A DNA stretch of 29,355 bases from a virus (IMGVR_UViG_2541047722_000019); one strand, 5' to 3'; shown: positions 7,209 to 29,355, counted from the stretch's first letter. Made by a program: numbers and translations. Notes: generated by a model from the letters alone, not told the origin.

Positions 7209-8324
7209 TTACAGGCAGCGTGCGACAGCAGCCTCATAGCTGATGCCTTCTTTTTTGGACAGGGCCACTGCTTTCTGATGCAGGGCCAGACGCTCAGGAT
7301 CGGCTTCCGCAAACTCTGCCACATCCACCTTCACCGTGTCGCCGACACGCTCTTTTGTGGCCTGTTCGGCGAAATTCATCACCGGCTCCCCGTCGGAGAG
7401 CAATGAACGAAAGGCGGTGGCCAGCGGTGTGCGGCTTTCCCCCTCAGCAAACTCCACCGGCTTGTCGCCACCGGCGACGGCATCCAGCAGGGCAACCACC
7501 ACGGAGGAGGCGCGGGGAGCCAGACGGCCCTCTGCGACCAGTTTTTCTGCAAAGGCCACATTGTCCTTATGCAGTTGCTCCTGTCTGACCTGTGCATCAC
7601 GCGCATCGCGATCAGCAGCCTGCTGCTTCAGGCGGCGGTTCTCCTCCTGAAGGGCTTCAATCTCTTCTTTTGTCATCGATGATTCCTCGTTACTTGCGGA
7701 AGACGGCCCCGGGCCTGTCTCACTGAATTGTGCACCTGCTGCATCCTGCGACAGTGTGTCGCGGTACGCCTCTTCGCGCAGACTGTTGAGCTGCCATTCC
7801 GGCAGGACTTTTTCTGCCTCGTCCAGACTGAAGCGGGCGATCAGAAAATCGCGCAGCTTTCCCCACAGGGAGGCATTCGTGATGGCCTGCCAGTCGGCGA
7901 ACTCCACCACACCTTCTTCCTGCTCACTGAAGGACACCTGTTTCAGCCCCTTGACGGAAGGTGGCTGTGCCCCGAGAAAGCCCACATGGCGAAGGTAGAG
8001 CACGCCGGGCTTCGGATTGGACGGTGAATCCGGGAGGTAGAAAGAGGCGGACACTTTTTTGAATCGTCCGTCGGTGACCATCTCAGCAAACTGCGGGTCC
8101 AGCTGGGCAGGCTCTGCCATCAGATCGACGCCGCTGAGCGACAGGGCTTTCACCCAGCCCCACGCCGGGTCTTCCGTTCTGGGATGACCAATCACGAGTG
8201 GTGCTTCATGGACGGACGGGTCATAGGCTTTCACGCAGGCGGCAAGATCGTCTGGCGTGAACGGCAGTTTTTTGCCGTGCATATCGGTATGAGTACCGGC
8301 TTTAAAAATGTGAATGGCTGACAT
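7209..8324 (-). CDS. Head maturation protease / scaffold (Mu I-like); possible internal scaffold start near 7676
   Basis: 371 aa; C-terminal third is charged and coiled-coil-like (EEIEALQEENRRLKQQAADRDARDAQVRQEQL). An in-frame ATG (7676-7674) precedes this part. First cistron after the G-I intergenic region. Confidence 0.6.
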   Translation of the reverse strand: MSAIHIFKAGTHTDMHGKKLPFTPDDLAACVKAYDPSVHEAPLVIGHPRTEDPAWGWVKALSLSGVDLMAEPAQLDPQFAEMVTDGRFKKVSASFYLPDSPSNPKPGVLYLRHVGFLGAQPPSVKGLKQVSFSEQEEGVVEFADWQAITNASLWGKLRDFLIARFSLDEAEKVLPEWQLNSLREEAYRDTLSQDAAGAQFSETGPGPSSASNEESSMTKEEIEALQEENRRLKQQAADRDARDAQVRQEQLHKDNVAFAEKLVAEGRLAPRASSVVVALLDAVAGGDKPVEFAEGESRTPLATAFRSLLSDGEPVMNFAEQATKERVGDTVKVDVAEFAEADPERLALHQKAVALSKKEGISYEAAVARCL

Positions 8325-8460
8325 TTTGCTGTCCCGCGTTATGTTGTCGGAGACAGTTTGTGAGAAATGCAGGCCCGGCGATTTTAATCTGCTTTAGAAA
8401 ACATCAGGGGAGAAGGACAGGGAAAGCAATGCGGTGAACCGGAGGCGGTTATAAAACAGA
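8325..8460 (-). promoter_or_regulatory. Candidate late promoter region for the I-to-tail operon (Mu P_I analogue)
   Basis: Non-coding stretch inside the late cluster, upstream of the I-like gene and downstream of a terminator-like hairpin. Contains TAAAAT and a TGTCTCCGACA palindrome 18-28 nt before the ATG. Promoter elements are not verified. Confidence 0.35.
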
Positions 8461-8492
8461 GGCTGTAAAGCCTTTATAAAGGTAATACAGCC
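8461..8492 (-). terminator. Dyad-symmetry hairpin with T-tract after the G-like gene
   Basis: GGCTGTA ... TACAGCC arms enclosing the palindrome CTTTATAAAG, followed on the minus strand by TCTGTTTTAT. Lies 47 nt after the stop at 8539. Confidence 0.45.
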
Positions 8493-8538
8493 CCTCATTC
8501 GCTGGCAATGATAAATCACCCGCCTGAAGAGAGAAAAC

Positions 8539-8997
8539 TCAGCGACGGGCCGCTGATTCAAGATGGCGGACAATGGTATCGAGGATGGGGATTACCACTT
8601 CAGGCTGTAGTTCTCCATCCCCCGTCACCGGCAGGAACGGGCGGGCCGGAAGTTCAACAGACTCATTACGCCCCGTTTTACCCCCGAACTGGTGAATGGC
8701 ACCGTAAACAACGTTGGTCCCCACAACAGCCTGCCGGTCGTCATGGTCGGTTGATACTGACCCCATCAGACGCCCGGTATCCTGCAGTGTCTGCCCGTCA
8801 CGTTCTTCCGCTGCCAGCGAGGGCATCCACCCCGGACGCCCCTCATCAAGAAAGTTAAACTGTGTTTCCGCCAGCAGGGTTCCGGCGATTTTGCGCATCG
8901 CGGGCTCCAGGTCTGTGGCAGCAAGATCCAGCGCACGGAGGCTCCGGCGCAGGGACTTATCGTTAATGGTGATACTGACCAGGTTATCGGAAGCCAT
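8539..8997 (-). CDS. Virion morphogenesis protein (Mu G-like by position)
   Basis: 152 aa, GAGAGGA upstream of ATG, between the F-like gene and the intergenic terminator. Confidence 0.6.
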   Translation of the reverse strand: MASDNLVSITINDKSLRRSLRALDLAATDLEPAMRKIAGTLLAETQFNFLDEGRPGWMPSLAAEERDGQTLQDTGRLMGSVSTDHDDRQAVVGTNVVYGAIHQFGGKTGRNESVELPARPFLPVTGDGELQPEVVIPILDTIVRHLESAARR

Positions 8998-15727: not shown

Positions 15728-15857
15728 GTGTGTCTCCTTGTCTGGTGGAGACAGCATCACAAATACAGGGCGCGAAGGATTTTAAAGCGCGTTAAGAGAG
15801 CCGGGGATACGGGATGTGCAGGATAAACGATGAATTATTCACAGAGGAGAATACGAT
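15728..15857. promoter_or_regulatory. Divergent promoter region (late operon leftward, cargo operon rightward) with RBS-overlapping inverted repeat
   Basis: 130-bp gap between divergent starts 15727 (-) and 15858 (+). Perfect inverted repeat TGTCTCC(9)GGAGACA at 15731-15753, whose one arm is the GGAG ribosome-binding site of the late gene. Confidence 0.4.
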
Positions 15858-16601
15858 ATGACGCAGACACTGAATCCGGTCATCACTGTCACCGTGTCCG
15901 GTCCTGTGGGCAGCGGTAAAAGTTACATATTGGCGCGGATAGAGGAAGTGGTGAAACAGGAATTCGGGGGCAGCGTCATTGTCGATGCTGCAGACGTAGA
16001 TGATGAGCGGCGTATGAGTGGCGATGATCTGACGACCTGGCAGAAGCCACGGGGTGGCACAGTGATCAGGCTGGAGGAATACACGGGACAGGGCCTGTTG
16101 TCATACGGCGAGGAGCGTATCTGTCGGACGAATGAGCTGCTGGATGTTATATGCCCCACGGGCCGGCAACCCTGGATACTGCCCGATGCACTGCATGCCA
16201 CCATTGCGGCACTGATGACAGTTTACGATCAGGAGCTGCTCATGAAGGAGCTACGTAAACTCACCGGTCAGCCAACAGAATGTTTTTCTGCCCCGAAGTA
16301 CGGGAAACAGGAACACATCCCGGTGAACACGCTCCCCGTTAACCAGCCTCCCCGGTTCTTCGACGAATACATTCTGACACCGGAAAATAAAGCTGAGCAC
16401 GAAGAGATCAAAGCGGCGTTGTTCCGGGAAATCAGGAAGATTGCTGAAATGCAACTGGGGGGCGGGCTGGACAGAGTGATGGCGAGAGGAGAATGGGAGT
16501 CGCTGTTTGAAAGAGTTTCCCCGGAATTACTTCCCCTCGCACTGGCTATCGGGATTATGCAGACAGCGGATAAACCTCACTTACGTTCATTAAACACGTA
16601 A
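15858..16601 (+). CDS. P-loop NTPase of unknown function
   Basis: ATG with AGAGGAGA 7 nt upstream. Walker A GPVGSGKS at residues 15-22. No resemblance to phage structural, lysis or transposition proteins that I recognise. Confidence 0.6.
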   Translation: MTQTLNPVITVTVSGPVGSGKSYILARIEEVVKQEFGGSVIVDAADVDDERRMSGDDLTTWQKPRGGTVIRLEEYTGQGLLSYGEERICRTNELLDVICPTGRQPWILPDALHATIAALMTVYDQELLMKELRKLTGQPTECFSAPKYGKQEHIPVNTLPVNQPPRFFDEYILTPENKAEHEEIKAALFREIRKIAEMQLGGGLDRVMARGEWESLFERVSPELLPLALAIGIMQTADKPHLRSLNT

Positions 16602-17195: not shown

Positions 17196-17251
17196 TCCCT
17201 AAACCACATTAACAGAAATCCCACTATCCCTGCCGCATCATGAAAGAACGA

Positions 17252-17282
17252 CCAGCCCGGTGCTTCGGACCCACCGGGCTGG
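17252..17282. other. GC-rich perfect hairpin (11-bp stem, CTTCGG-containing loop)
   Basis: CCAGCCCGGTG-cttcggacc-CACCGGGCTGG. No clean T-tract on the plus strand; a weak one (TCGTTCTTTCA) on the minus strand. Confidence 0.35.
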
Positions 17283-17386
17283 CCATCGTCCCACAGAAGT
17301 GGCTGTGAGCCGACCGAGGTTCAGTCAGTCTCGCGAGACCAGACTAGCCTGCCATATTTTTAATAATTGTAAAAGGCTTACAGATT

Positions 17387-18151
17387 ATGAAAATGAAGAC
17401 ATTACCCATCGTTCCATGGATTGGTGGCAAACGTCGCCTGGCAAAACACATCCTGCCGCTGTTTCCGGCGCATGAATGTTATGTGGAGCCGTTTTGTGGG
17501 GCAGCAGCGCTCTATTTTCTTAAGACACCCGGCAAGATCGAAGTCATCAATGATATCAACGGTGAACTGGTGAATCTGTACCGGGTGGTAAAGCATCACC
17601 TGGAAGAATTTGTCCGCCAGTTCAAATGGGCGCTGGTCAGCCGTCAGATCTACAAATGGCTGCAGATCACCCCGGAAGAAACACTGACGGATATCCAGCG
17701 TGCGGCACGGTTCTACTACCTTCAGAAGCAGGCGTTTGGCGGCAAGGTGGCAGAGCACAGCTTCGGTACCTCCACCACATCCCCGCCACGCTTCAACCTG
17801 CTGCGTATTGAAGAAGAACTGTCAGCAGCACACCTGCGGCTTTCCAGAACAGTCATAGAACACATGGACTGGCAACAGTGCATTGAGCGTTATGATCGTC
17901 CGCACACACTGTTCTACTGCGACCCACCGTACCTGGGTACGGAAGGCTATGGTGTGGATTTTCCTGAAGGGAACTACTCGCGGCTGGCAGAGCTGGCCCG
18001 GTGCATCAGAGGAAAAATGATAATTTCGGTGAACGATATCCCACAGATGCGCGAGGTGTTCACTGGACTGAACATACAGACAGTGAACATCAACTACAGT
18101 CTGGCGGGGAAATCTACGCCGCGCCGTGAACTGGTAATCTGCAACTTCTGA
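17387..18151 (+). CDS. dam: N6-adenine DNA methyltransferase, Dam family (orphan, no adjacent restriction gene)
   Basis: N-terminal WIGGKRRL and VEPFCGAAALYF (SAM-binding motif I) plus FYCDPPY catalytic motif. 254 aa, close to E. coli Dam in size and motif order. Confidence 0.85.
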   Translation: MKMKTLPIVPWIGGKRRLAKHILPLFPAHECYVEPFCGAAALYFLKTPGKIEVINDINGELVNLYRVVKHHLEEFVRQFKWALVSRQIYKWLQITPEETLTDIQRAARFYYLQKQAFGGKVAEHSFGTSTTSPPRFNLLRIEEELSAAHLRLSRTVIEHMDWQQCIERYDRPHTLFYCDPPYLGTEGYGVDFPEGNYSRLAELARCIRGKMIISVNDIPQMREVFTGLNIQTVNINYSLAGKSTPRRELVICNF

Positions 18152-24527: not shown

Positions 24528-24833
24528 ATGACACGGAACACCGAACTCACCCGCACCGCCCTCTACCGTCTGGCCCTGCAGCGTTTCGGGCCGGACGCAC
24601 AGGCCCTGAAACTGACAGAAGAGGCCGCTGAACTGGCGGCCAGTGCCGCCCGCAACCTGAACGGACAGGGCAGCGAAAGTGACCTCGCGGCAGAGCTGGC
24701 AGACGTGGAAATCATGACAGAGCAGCTGCGCCTTCAGGGAATGGACCGGCTGATTGACTTCCACAAACAGAAAAAACTGGAACGCCTTGCCGCACGGCTG
24801 GGCGTCATGTACACCGGAGATACTGAACAATGA
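24528..24833 (+). CDS. MazG-like nucleotide pyrophosphohydrolase
   Basis: 101 aa, all-helical, with the MazG metal-binding pattern EEAAE ... AELADVEIM. Confidence 0.6.
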   Translation: MTRNTELTRTALYRLALQRFGPDAQALKLTEEAAELAASAARNLNGQGSESDLAAELADVEIMTEQLRLQGMDRLIDFHKQKKLERLAARLGVMYTGDTEQ

Positions 24834-25945: not shown

Positions 25946-26387
25946 ACAACGTCTTATCCAGCTCATTCATATTGCCCGTAATGAACTGGGTATGGATGAA
26001 GACACCTACCGCCAGATGTTACAGGGGCTGACCGGTAAAGCCTCAACCAAAGGAATGGATACCACACAACTAAACTGCGTGCTGGAATCCATGAAAAGGA
26101 AAGGCTTTCGCGTTAAGCCTGCCGGAAAAGCCAGCTCCGGTTTACCGCTGGATAACCATCCGCAGTCCAGGAAAATCCGTGCGCTATGGCTTGAAATGGC
26201 TGCTGCCGGCATTGTTCGTGACCGTTCAGAAAATGCATTAGCGCGGTGGATCAAGCGGGAAACGGGCATCAGCGCCCTGCGCTGGCTCAGTACTGAACAG
26301 GCAAGCAGTGTTATTGAGAAACTGAAGAAGTGGCAGCGCAGAGCTGCGGGAGTCAAACATGAGCGACCTGAATCAGTTTCGAAGTAA
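25934..26387 (+). CDS. GemA-like early protein
   Basis: ATG with AAGGAG upstream; immediately upstream of the Mor-like gene, as gemA is in Mu. Confidence 0.55.
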
Positions 26388-26757
26388 AGGGCCGGAACTC
26401 CTGGTGGAGCTGGCACAGCATACCTCTGAGACCGTTCGCGAGATTATTGATATTGAGCCCGCAATTGCCGACCAGATTGGTCAGGCCGTCGCGAACCGAA
26501 TGATGCAGGTCTGGGGCGGGCAAAACGTTTATTTCCCGATGGGCATGGTATGGAAGGTCAGTCAGCGCGACCGGGAAATCTTCAGGGAGTTTAACGGACG
26601 CAACCACCACGAACTGGCCCGCAAGTTTGGTGTTTCGCTTCAGTGGGTCTACAGCGTGGTTAAGCGGGTCAGAAAAGAAGAACTGGATCGGATGCAGGGC
26701 AGGTTGTTTGATGAAGATCTGCCAGAGGAGACGAAAGACGTTAACAAATCCAGATAA
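26359..26757 (+). CDS. mor: Mor/C-family transcriptional activator
   Basis: 132 aa; GGQNVYFP and FNGRNHHELARKFGVSLQWVYSVVKRVR match the Mor/C C-terminal DNA-binding region. Last early cistron. Confidence 0.8.
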   Translation: MSDLNQFRSKGPELLVELAQHTSETVREIIDIEPAIADQIGQAVANRMMQVWGGQNVYFPMGMVWKVSQRDREIFREFNGRNHHELARKFGVSLQWVYSVVKRVRKEELDRMQGRLFDEDLPEETKDVNKSR

Positions 26758-27819: not shown

Positions 27820-27865
27820 GTTATTTATCTCACGGATCCCCCTTCATTTATCTCATGTCTGATCA
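27820..27865. repeat. Prophage terminus with direct repeats (candidate transposase-binding sites)
   Basis: ATTTATCTCA occurs at 27823-27832 and 27846-27855, with a related CTTATCTATCG at ~27750. On the host-facing strand the element end reads 5'-TGATCAGACATGAGATAAATG. Confidence 0.45.
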
Positions 27866-29355
27866 CTGCCGTGAGCAGAGGCGCGCAGGATCGACCGTAG
27901 TTGTGTGGTAAACAACGACGCGTATTCTTCATAAATACGCACCGCGCGATAACCGAGGAACGGGTTAGCTTCTGCCGGAATGTTCAGATAATCAACGGGT
28001 TTATCACCGCCAATGTCCATAGTGCGCACAATAATGCTGCGTCCGTTGGCAGACTCCAGCGCCTGACAAAAAATGTTGTACAGCTCGCTTTCGCCCGGTG
28101 CACTGGTGCGATCCATATAGAGCATTTCAGTGCGGAACAAACCAACGCCTTCCGCACCATTGCCGAATGCGGCCTGCGCTTCCACGGAGTGAGCGATGTT
28201 AGCGGCAATTTCAATGCGGATACCGTCAGCGGTACGCGCTTGCTGGGTCAGCCAGACACGCTGTTGCTCACGCAGAGCGTCCTGTACGCGGGCTTCTTGC
28301 TGATAATAACGGGCCACGGATTCCCCTGGCTCAACCACAATCGCCCCTGCGTTGCCGTCGATATAAATCGTCTGATGCTGCCACGGAGTAAGGGCAGCAA
28401 TATCCACACCTACCAGCGTCGGAATGTTGAACGAACGGGCAAGGATCACAGTATGTGAGGTGGTGCCGCCACTTTTCAGTAACAGACCTTTGAGATGATT
28501 TTTATCCAGTTCGAGGAACTGGCTGGGGGTCAGTTCATCAGCCATACAAATGGCGGGCTGCGTCAGTTTGCCCGGTGCCGGGAAGCGTTGCTCACCGTAG
28601 ATTTGCTGGAGTAACTGGAAGCAGACGTCGCGTACGTCCAGGGCACGTTCTTGCAGGTAGCTGCTGCTGGAACGGGCGAACTCTTCGCAAAAGTGATTCG
28701 CACTGGCAACAATCGCTTCGGCGCAGCTTAATCCGGCGCTGACACCTGCCAGTAAATGTTCGCGCAGGGAAGTATCGCCAGCCAGGGATCGGTGCGCTTC
28801 CAGAATCGCGCTGGTAGCACCGTCGCTATCCAGCAGACGAAACTCTATGTTTTTCAGTACCAGCGTCAGACCGTTTTCCAGTGCGGATTGTTCGGCGTCA
28901 ACGCCTTTGGCTGCGGGAAGATTACCCAGCGCATTGAGATCTAAAGAAGAGATCGGCGTCAGAATGCCGCCTGCGCTACCACTGCACACGGTGCGAGCAC
29001 GGATAATTTGCGGATTCAGATTGGTCAGTGAAACCGGCAGTGGTTCCAGTTCGTCAGATTTTACTTCCGCCAGCGGTGCGTCGCAGTGGGGGAATTCATC
29101 GCGCAGCCATTGGCTTAAACGCTGGTACGCTTCCTGTTCGTCGGCCCCGGAAATCAGTAACTGGCAGTTATCGCCCACCAGCGTATCGGTGCCAATCAGC
29201 GCAAGGGCGCTTTTGGCGTTGCCCTTGCGGTCAGTGCGCAGGTTATGCCACTCAATTTGTGATGAAAAAGTATTACACAGCGTTTCAACGTGGCTTGCCG
29301 GACGCGCATGGACGCCGTTAGGTAGCTCACAAATAAATTCCACAATCAGGGCCAT
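27866..29355 (-). pseudogene. ptsA: Host PTS multiphosphoryl transfer protein (HPr-Enzyme I fusion), 5' ~1.5 kb only, interrupted by prophage insertion
   Basis: HPr signature GVHARPASH at the N-terminus, EI phospho-His motif GGTTSHTVILARSFNIPTLVG, and PEP-utilising motifs GAEGVGLFRTEMLYMDR and NPFLGYRAVRIY. The reading frame ends at ...LRASAHGSDQT*, mid-domain. Symbol is from recollection of the E. coli PtsA/FrwA N-terminus; a FryA-type paralogue is not excluded. Confidence 0.6.

Follow-up and report, generated by a model that had tools for sequence, protein, structure and literature searches.

What divides the late genes in the middle of a Mu-like prophage? The question arises at a gap of 214 base pairs (bp; positions 8325-8538) between a G-like and an I-like gene on the minus strand of a 29,355-nucleotide (nt) stretch of viral DNA (IMGVR_UViG_2541047722_000019), here called the window, from whose first letter positions are counted. 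Comparison with related phages leads us to regard the gap as probably the boundary between two late transcription units, working like the G-I region of phage Mu. In the late direction it holds a terminator-like hairpin with an invariant apex, a variable spacer, a predicted activator-dependent promoter and a second hairpin, which would occlude the ribosome-binding site of gene I in RNA arriving from upstream. The arrangement is ordinary for a Mu-like phage and mostly confirms that the known Mu arrangement is conserved; it adds a promoter model for the BcepMu group, a covariation-supported hairpin against the Shine-Dalgarno sequence (anti-SD hairpin) that is tied to the promoter, and an invariant central motif for which the boundary model does not account.

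We predict that the gap contains a late promoter of the activator-dependent Mor/C type, which a shared motif allows to be placed precisely. Its elements and presumed activator are as follows.

8397-8384, minus strand: activator dyad CTAA-AGCAGA-TTAA, predicted centre about -42.5 and span about -49 to -36.
8360-8355, minus strand: -10 hexamer CAAACT, 23 nt past the dyad and the same as the -10 of Mu PI.
8348-8347, minus strand: predicted transcription start of the I unit, from the position of the -10.
26359..26757, plus strand: gene of the presumed trans-acting Mor/C-family activator (Pfam PF08765 Mor, 1.1e-43, full-length match).

The I leader predicted from this start is ∼23 nt long, with the Shine-Dalgarno (SD) sequence GGGA and the ATG at 8324. 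AATCGC occupies the -35 position, and a sigma-70 consensus scan of the gap detected no late-strand promoter. The pattern TTAA (at most one mismatch)-N6-TTAA-N23-xAxxxT occurs five times in the window, compared with 0.23 ± 0.50 in 200 shuffles. When the hexamer condition was lifted, 16 dyads were found, five of them with xAxxxT at offset 23 and 0-2 at the other offsets between 12 and 35. The window sites stand before holin (15795), before I (8397) and before the genes for tail assembly (2480), with two more on the plus strand; the complete Escherichia coli prophage has six, one being added before the baseplate genes, and all precede correctly oriented genes. Likewise, BcepMu has four dyads in 36.7 kilobases (kb), all on the late strand before late genes, and xAxxxT follows them at offset 23 only (4/4).

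Dyad and hexamer are also found upstream of I in relatives from Pectobacterium, Erwinia, Burkholderia, Ralstonia, Pseudomonas, Pasteurella and Neisseria. The dyad reads GTAA-AGCCGA-TTAA in Burkholderia, TTAA-TGGGGG-TTAA in Pectobacterium, and TTAA-GCCGCA-TTAA or TTAA-ACCCGA-TTAA in Neisseria and Pseudomonas relatives. The hexamers (CAAACT, CAGACT, GACACT, GATGAT, CACAAT and CAGGCT) stand exactly 23 nt past the second half-site and always keep A at the second and T at the sixth position. The gene at 26359-26757, a 'Mor transcription activator family protein' in RefSeq, is the sole Mor/C-family gene of the prophage.

Several features link these sites to the Mor/C promoters of Mu (Pm, Plys, PI, PP and Pmom). 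Mu late promoters have a -10 without a -35; the region from -30 to -55 is protected by C, and that from -52 to -34 is needed (PMC2582627), the latter being where the window dyad would fall from the predicted start. The Mu dyad lies just upstream of a non-optimal -35 (bioRxiv 10.1101/2025.05.02.651988), and a PI promoter oligonucleotide designed from the S1-mapped start has +1 seven nt past CAAACT (PMC4461284). Common to both phages are an imperfect dyad just upstream of the -35 position, a -10 with no -35, a site used at several promoters per genome, and a gene for a small dimeric helix-turn-helix (HTH) activator of the Mor family. PI in particular shares the identical CAAACT, the missing -35 and, as predicted for the window, dependence on an activator. 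In contrast to Mu, the sequence recognised is TTAA-AGCnnn-TTAA, confined to BcepMu-like phages, and where Mu has ATAA-N24-CAAACT the window half-site is TTAA with 23 nt to the -10. Moreover, the window phage has one Mor-type activator, unlike the Mor-then-C cascade of Mu, and its site would also act for two genes of the other strand, in one case by way of a dyad that both directions share. ATAACCGCC (8452-8444) was considered as a site of the Mu C type and rejected, as no -10 lies at the required distance. If the model is correct, the late-promoter code of BcepMu-like transposable phages is TTAA-N6-TTAA, 23 nt and a weak -10, and their late regulon, including a Dam-like methylase, would be readable from sequence. 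These phages are common prophages in pathogenic E. coli (including ST131), Klebsiella, Burkholderia and Pseudomonas.

The promoter is interlocked with an inverted repeat that ends at the ribosome-binding site.

8356-8350, minus strand: 5' arm CUGUCUC, overlapping the predicted -10 and upstream of the predicted +1.
8335-8329, minus strand: 3' arm GGGACAG, the ribosome-binding site of gene I, pairing with CUGUCUC.

This hairpin has a folding free energy (dG) of -10.7 and a z-score of -4.5. In ten enteric sequences the arms are 100% paired and every change is wobble-compatible; Pseudomonas-type relatives have CUGUGCGC/GCGCACAG and an AT-rich lineage has CUGUCUCUAUUA/UAAUAGAGGCAG. For a quantitative comparison across 14 lineages, the arms were taken as the 8 nt that start with the fifth base of the -10 and the 8 nt ending at the CAG before the start codon. 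So defined, 92.9% of cells were paired, against 77.6 ± 2.8 in shuffled sets (0/500), while slid controls gave 27-58%. Five of the eight pairs had changed on both sides, with 18 double-changed cells versus 6.6 ± 2.1 (0/500), and the covariation score was 0.512 versus 0.237 ± 0.041 (0/500).

In every lineage the 5' arm starts at the fifth base of the predicted -10. Because it overlaps the -10, the arm would be absent from the promoter's own transcript, and the hairpin would form only in RNA that comes from upstream. The holin promoter has the same arrangement, a perfect 7-bp UGUCUCC/GGAGACA (15753-15747 and 15737-15731, minus strand), and so has the BcepMu tail promoter (∼24575-24600 of that genome) with GUGCUC/GAGCAC; at these two promoters the 5' arm lies between -10 and +1. 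Mu PI, too, has an inverted repeat (CTGCTCA/TGAGCAG) on both sides of its start site; the repeat stops at the I ribosome-binding site, and the mapped start falls within its 5' arm. We infer that late genes are translatable mainly from transcripts of their own promoter. If the model is correct, the overlap of the 5' arm with the -10 would make them translatable only from transcripts of their own, activator-dependent promoter, and a lysogen would be protected from expression of holin and head genes by stray read-through.

A similar device, 'fold-back inhibition', is said to have been described by Davis, Simons and Kleckner in 1985 and reportedly shields IS10/Tn10 and other insertion sequences from outside transcription. 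As in IS10, an inverted repeat would occlude the ribosome-binding site only in upstream-derived transcripts, the gene's own promoter starting inside or after the 5' arm. Unlike IS10, the device stands here at phage late promoters and not at a transposase gene, and the start site is predicted from sequence.

The upstream half of the gap is occupied by a terminator-like hairpin, which the sequence-only reading had placed, with its T-tract, directly after the G-like gene.

8495-8458, minus strand: main terminator-like hairpin with a lower stem of 10 bp, a 3x3 internal loop and an apical stem of 4 bp, CCUU-UAUA-AAGG (UAUA loop).
8457-8451, minus strand: U-tract GUUUUAU, directly 3' of the main hairpin; the identical 7-mer follows the Mu G-I terminator hairpin.
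8556-8527 (stem 8556-8539), minus strand: weak hairpin over the G stop codon with the U-rich tail GUUUUCUCUCUU, from a pattern scan.

The main hairpin is real by its stability (dG -19.9 kcal/mol, z -3.76; none of 200 shuffles was as stable), and the GUUUUAU tail is present, but the structure begins 44 nt past the G stop codon. The weak hairpin at the stop codon was not significant in the shuffle test (dG -8.8, z -1.4) and is conserved because the coding sequence is conserved there. The terminator-pattern scan was unspecific, with 28 matches against 17.8 ± 4.3 expected.

The arms of the lower stem vary yet stay complementary (GGGGCUGUA/UACAGCCCC, CCCGUAAAG/CUUUACGGG, GCGGC/GCCGC and GGGGCUU/AAGCCCC), and this complementarity is maintained across lineages from Burkholderia, Pectobacterium and Pseudomonas. 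Next to the apex, Pseudomonas types have G:C in place of C:G. Single stem substitutions (in the window, in one further relative, L011, and two in phiE255) are all compatible with G.U pairing on the late-sense strand only, which favours an RNA structure read in the late direction.

The layout agrees with that of Mu, as the sequence-only reading had supposed. In the Mu record the G-I gap is 196 bp, compared with 214 bp here, and is annotated with a gyrase cut site at 17879/80, with a terminator predicted at 17908-17953 and, at 17977-18043, with PI as the late promoter; both gaps lie between G and I homologues at the genome centre. The Mu terminator has a dG of -19.8, the same two-tier shape and the GUUUUAU tail, so that in both phages a two-tier hairpin of about -20 kcal/mol is followed by that tail and then by a late promoter, a predicted one in the window. 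We found no sequence homology between the window gap and the Mu gap, and the window phage has an invariant core, TTTATAAAG, that is absent from Mu.

A number of points weigh against the operon-boundary model. Its functional steps are all inferred from sequence. As a -10, CAAACT is poor (3/6 consensus), and this particular phage has a better hexamer, TAAAAT, within the dyad. For the 14-lineage covariation, arms were cut from related sequences by an anchor rule of our own devising. The holin promoter has the anti-SD arrangement without an upstream late operon, so read-through from an upstream late unit cannot be the whole rationale. Erwinia and Ralstonia types have the apical mini-hairpin only, without the lower stem. 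Finally, the tail after the hairpin is U-poor in KP12-type (CGCUUCGC; GCTTCGC), Pectobacterium and Pseudomonas types. Since the U-tract is missing in the commonest relatives, intrinsic termination may not be what is conserved about the hairpin.

Among the alternatives we give most weight to one that we still hold to be rather unlikely: that the hairpin is not a terminator but an element of RNA processing or stability, such as a stem protecting a 3' end or a target of RNase III or RNase E whose AU-rich apex is recognised, that transcription proceeds through the gap, and that the cluster is divided post-transcriptionally. The hairpin is indeed kept without a U-tract in most lineages, its apex UUUAUAAAG is invariant although the stems covary, and from the conservation of the anti-SD hairpin it follows that read-through RNA is frequent enough to be of consequence. 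Against this, the window, Burkholderia and Mu do have a usable U-tract, good U-tracts being confined to these three (the BcepMu tail is UUUGGUU), and canonical terminators stand directly before another late promoter in this family, which argues that termination at operon boundaries is part of the design. Rfam, moreover, gave no family match in the gap or the window. Compared with intrinsic terminators at large, the window hairpin conforms in having a stable stem-loop and an immediate U-rich tract; it departs from them in its AU-rich apex, sequence-invariant across distant phages, in the loss of the U-tract in most relatives, and in that the neighbouring late-unit boundary at 2501-2486 has a short canonical GC hairpin instead.

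The invariant apex goes beyond what a plain terminator explains.

8480-8465, minus strand: conserved core TTTATAAAGGCTTTAC (invariant part TTTATAAAG), found once each in the window, BcepMu and the E. coli prophage.

When the gap was aligned with those of relatives, two islands of conservation stood out from otherwise unalignable DNA, the downstream one being the promoter dyad. The TTTATAAAG core is unchanged in all G-I gaps of the enteric, Burkholderia, Ralstonia and Pseudomonas relatives, lineages whose I proteins are 42-75% identical. The sequence-only reading had noticed a perfect palindrome within the hairpin; it is there, and longer than first described, a 12-bp CCTTTATAAAGG (8482-8471) that makes up the apical stem and loop and is unique in the window as well as in the whole prophage. 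The conserved unit, judged from the alignments, is the TTTATAAAG core with stem-like covarying flanks and not the palindrome as such. The core is under selection at the level of its sequence, and the operon-boundary model leaves that selection unexplained.

Another reading takes core and hairpin to be mainly a DNA element, the BcepMu-family counterpart of the central strong gyrase site (SGS) of Mu or another central end-pairing site, with the terminator look secondary. We consider this improbable, and are equally doubtful of the more specific proposal that TTTATAAAG is a dedicated central cis-acting site (for example for gyrase or a nucleoid protein), equivalent to the Mu SGS but unrelated to it in sequence, which would pair the prophage ends for replicative transposition. 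The idea gains from position: the gyrase site of Mu and FluMu lies between G and I (Mu record annotation; PMC2628397), that of Mu must be central to function (PMC10052514; PMC3820752), and the one copy of the core in each genome stands at 50.6% of the length of the E. coli prophage (38.3 kb) and at 51.0% in BcepMu, compared with 48.7% for the cut site in Mu. Yet a central position follows from the gene order conserved in all Mu-like phages. Invariance of sequence across hosts is unusual for a terminator; on the other hand, the C:G to G:C covariation beside the core and the late-strand-only G.U changes speak for RNA structure and against a duplex or cruciform DNA site, and the window gap has no sequence similarity to the Mu SGS.

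Crude scans for gyrase sites did not help to decide. The best match near the gap, centred at 8575 inside the 3' end of G and 37 nt before its stop, ranks third among window loci, with a GC/AT pattern correlation of 0.34 to the published 133-nt gyrase consensus, a score by which the true Mu site did not come first. By this consensus and by 10-11-bp AT periodicity the gap falls in the top 0.3-2% of positions, as does the true Mu SGS, again not first, so that these scans have no discriminating power; BcepMu scores low in the gyrase scans. If the central-site explanation were true, a special site at the exact centre would be a general need of transposable phages and not a peculiarity of Mu, and the invariant central TTTATAAAG bears on whether other transposable phages require one. 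Oram and Pato are said to have reported gyrase cleavage in the central region of the Mu-like prophage of S. Typhi in 2004.

Other roles for the core were examined and rejected. A second Mor-type promoter on either strand lacks xAxxxT at 22-24 nt, core-to-dyad distances of 73, 76 and 86 bp show no phasing, and a likeness to boxA (GCUCUUUA) needs two deletions. A transposase-binding site is not indicated either: the gap has one GATAAAT copy, but six copies in 40 kb are at chance level, and the BcepMu gap has none. By eye, we saw no consensus for IHF, Fis, CRP, the DnaA box, sigma-54 or CsrA in the core.

Two groups of relatives deserve mention here. In Neisseria prophages (L023-L026, L035; region ∼330 nt upstream of the I-like gene), the immediate upstream neighbour of I resembles a Mor/C-family gene, with an HTH motif at the C-terminal end, and has a canonical terminator after it; these prophages keep dyad and -10 but lack the TTTATAAAG core. 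In Pasteurella phage AFS-2018a (L172, 520-580), four tandem TTAA-AGCnnn-TTAA dyads upstream of the I promoter occupy the place that the core has in enteric phages. TTAAAGC, which forms the left dyad half, is similar to the TAAAG units of which the core is composed.

The position of the -10 also allows a different account, to which we assign little credence, in which TAAAAT (8386-8381) inside the dyad is the -10, transcription starts near 8374 and the hairpin that sequesters the SD is an ordinary part of the I leader, lowering translation of every I transcript. TAAAAT matches the consensus at 5/6 positions, and this account would explain the anti-SD arm at the holin promoter, which has no late operon upstream. 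However, the hexamer at that position lacks the essential final T in relatives, being TAAAAG in KP12-type, Burkholderia, Ralstonia, Pseudomonas and Neisseria phages and TAACAG in Pectobacterium; the A...T signal at offset 23 is perfect in BcepMu; and the offset-23 geometry agrees with the Mu promoters and the mapped PI start.

That the gap codes for a small RNA or for the 41-amino-acid (aa) open reading frame (ORF) annotated in KP12 (window 8519-8394) is hardly credible: an equally long ORF can be read in the window and in KP12-type phages, and over its first 120 nt the gap shares 92-95% identity with KP12, but -1 and +1 indels in mid-ORF shift the frame and leave the central third of the two peptides unrelated, Erwinia, Pectobacterium and Burkholderia types lack the ORF, its GTG has no preceding ribosome-binding site, the neighbouring G gene is as well conserved (∼93%), and an Rfam search of the gap gave no match. 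The ORF was therefore rejected, its frame not being conserved and other lineages lacking it, and we also dropped the notion that the gap is better conserved than its coding flanks. The 41-aa 'hypothetical protein' WAY79742.1 in the G-I gap of Klebsiella phage KP12 (record L002, 4382-4507) is probably a spurious annotation, as its frame is not conserved with the window.

Returning to the operon-boundary model, we envisage the following course of events. RNA polymerase starting at the holin promoter (∼15746) would transcribe the lysis, terminase, portal, F and G genes, and at the hairpin 8495-8458 with its GUUUUAU a part of it would terminate. Transcripts that escape would cross the C-rich, G-poor, untranslated spacer and carry CUGUCUC (8356-8350), which pairs with GGGACAG (8335-8329) in a structure supported by covariation; such read-through RNA would be poorly translated and perhaps open to Rho. 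Meanwhile the single Mor/C-family activator (26359-26757) would bind the dyad 8397-8384 near -42.5, a site and geometry to which the comparative statistics point, and recruit sigma-70 RNA polymerase to the weak -10 CAAACT, which has no -35. With a start near 8348, downstream of the 5' arm, the ribosome-binding site would be free, and I, the capsid protein and the following head genes would be expressed. The same promoter design would drive the holin, tail-assembly and baseplate units (the last outside the window) and two genes on the other strand.

This model keeps the essentials of what had been proposed from the sequence alone and modifies parts of it. The boundary layout that was to split the late cluster into two operons is supported, but since the same motif precedes the holin, tail-assembly and baseplate genes, the cluster would consist of at least four units (holin, I, tail-assembly and baseplate), not two. 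Likewise, a separate late promoter before I is supported by the shared motif; it would not extend through the tail genes. The leader of ∼135 bp thought to follow the hairpin (∼125-135 nt are left there) is replaced by a variable spacer of ∼53 nt, the promoter at 8397-8355 and a leader of ∼23 nt.

8450-8398, minus strand: fast-evolving C-rich, G-poor spacer, 55% identical to KP12 with indels (G gene ∼93%).

The C-G skew of the spacer (0.28) is the third highest of any 60-nt window on the 16-kb late strand, and C exceeds G in all relatives. The spacer is a possible Rho loading region; more speculatively, a C-rich spacer combined with an occluded ribosome-binding site would suit Rho-dependent clearing of read-through RNA.

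The genes around the gap and the end of the prophage are these.

8997..8539, minus strand: G-like gene of virion morphogenesis, closing the upstream late unit that runs from holin to G; Pfam PF05069 Phage_tail_S, 4.9e-23.
8324..7209, minus strand: I-like head protease/scaffold gene, first of the downstream unit; 51% identity to BcepMu gp32, the 'Mu I equivalent'.
27853-29355, minus strand: ORF in host DNA, outside the prophage.

The G-like gene is labelled 'Mup31, G' in the annotation of Escherichia phage PhiKM (genus Bcepmuvirus), and tblastn matches of the I-like gene are named 'head maturation protease'. Window bases 1 to ∼27865 are 99.4% identical to PhiKM, and the gene order agrees with BcepMu and Mu; by its sequence, the element is a BcepMu-type, Mu-like transposable E. 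coli prophage. The minus strand carries the genes for lysis, head and tail, from ∼15750 down to position 1, while the early genes (transposase, B-like ATPase, Gam, GemA and the Mor-family activator at 26359-26757) are on the plus strand. The right end, ∼27865, is the point at which matches to many E. coli genomes cease, and the insertion loci vary among those genomes (clbG, irp1, yeiB and others). In strain G749 the prophage, ∼38.3 kb long, splits a permease gene. The prophage termini (1029-1075 and 39320-39357 of record L049) begin with TGAT and have two GATAAAT-containing repeats 23 bp apart, presumably transposase sites. The G749 RefSeq annotation also bears out the G-I gap as the only sizeable non-coding gap of the structural cluster: at 214 bp it is the largest truly non-coding one, the others being 97 and 54 bp, with a further 157 bp at the tail-chaperone frameshift site.

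Two sister promoters on the late strand complete the set.

15795-15753, minus strand: sister promoter before the holin gene, with the dyad at 15795-15782 and the -10 GATGCT at 15758-15753.
2501-2438, minus strand: sister module after the tail tube gene, with a GC hairpin at 2501-2486 (GGGGCTCCGGCCCC), the dyad at 2480-2467 and the -10 CATACT at 2443-2438.

At the second, the T-tract of the canonical GC hairpin extends into the first TTAA of the dyad, a layout that BcepMu shares at 24.5 kb. The holin dyad (15782-15795) fits the promoter pattern on both strands, since on the plus strand CAGGAT (15819-15824) follows it at 23 nt, in front of a 247-aa ORF (15858-16601, plus strand); one activator site may thus drive two divergent late promoters. 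A further plus-strand promoter of the Mor type (17199-17241; CTAA-ACCACA-TTAA, -10 CATCAT) precedes the gene 17387-18151 (plus strand), which encodes a Dam-like N6-adenine methyltransferase (Pfam MethyltransfD12, 5.9e-29) and has a strong GC hairpin (about 17254-17284) within its long leader. A Mor-type promoter before a methyltransferase gene parallels mom, the activator-dependent modification gene of Mu.

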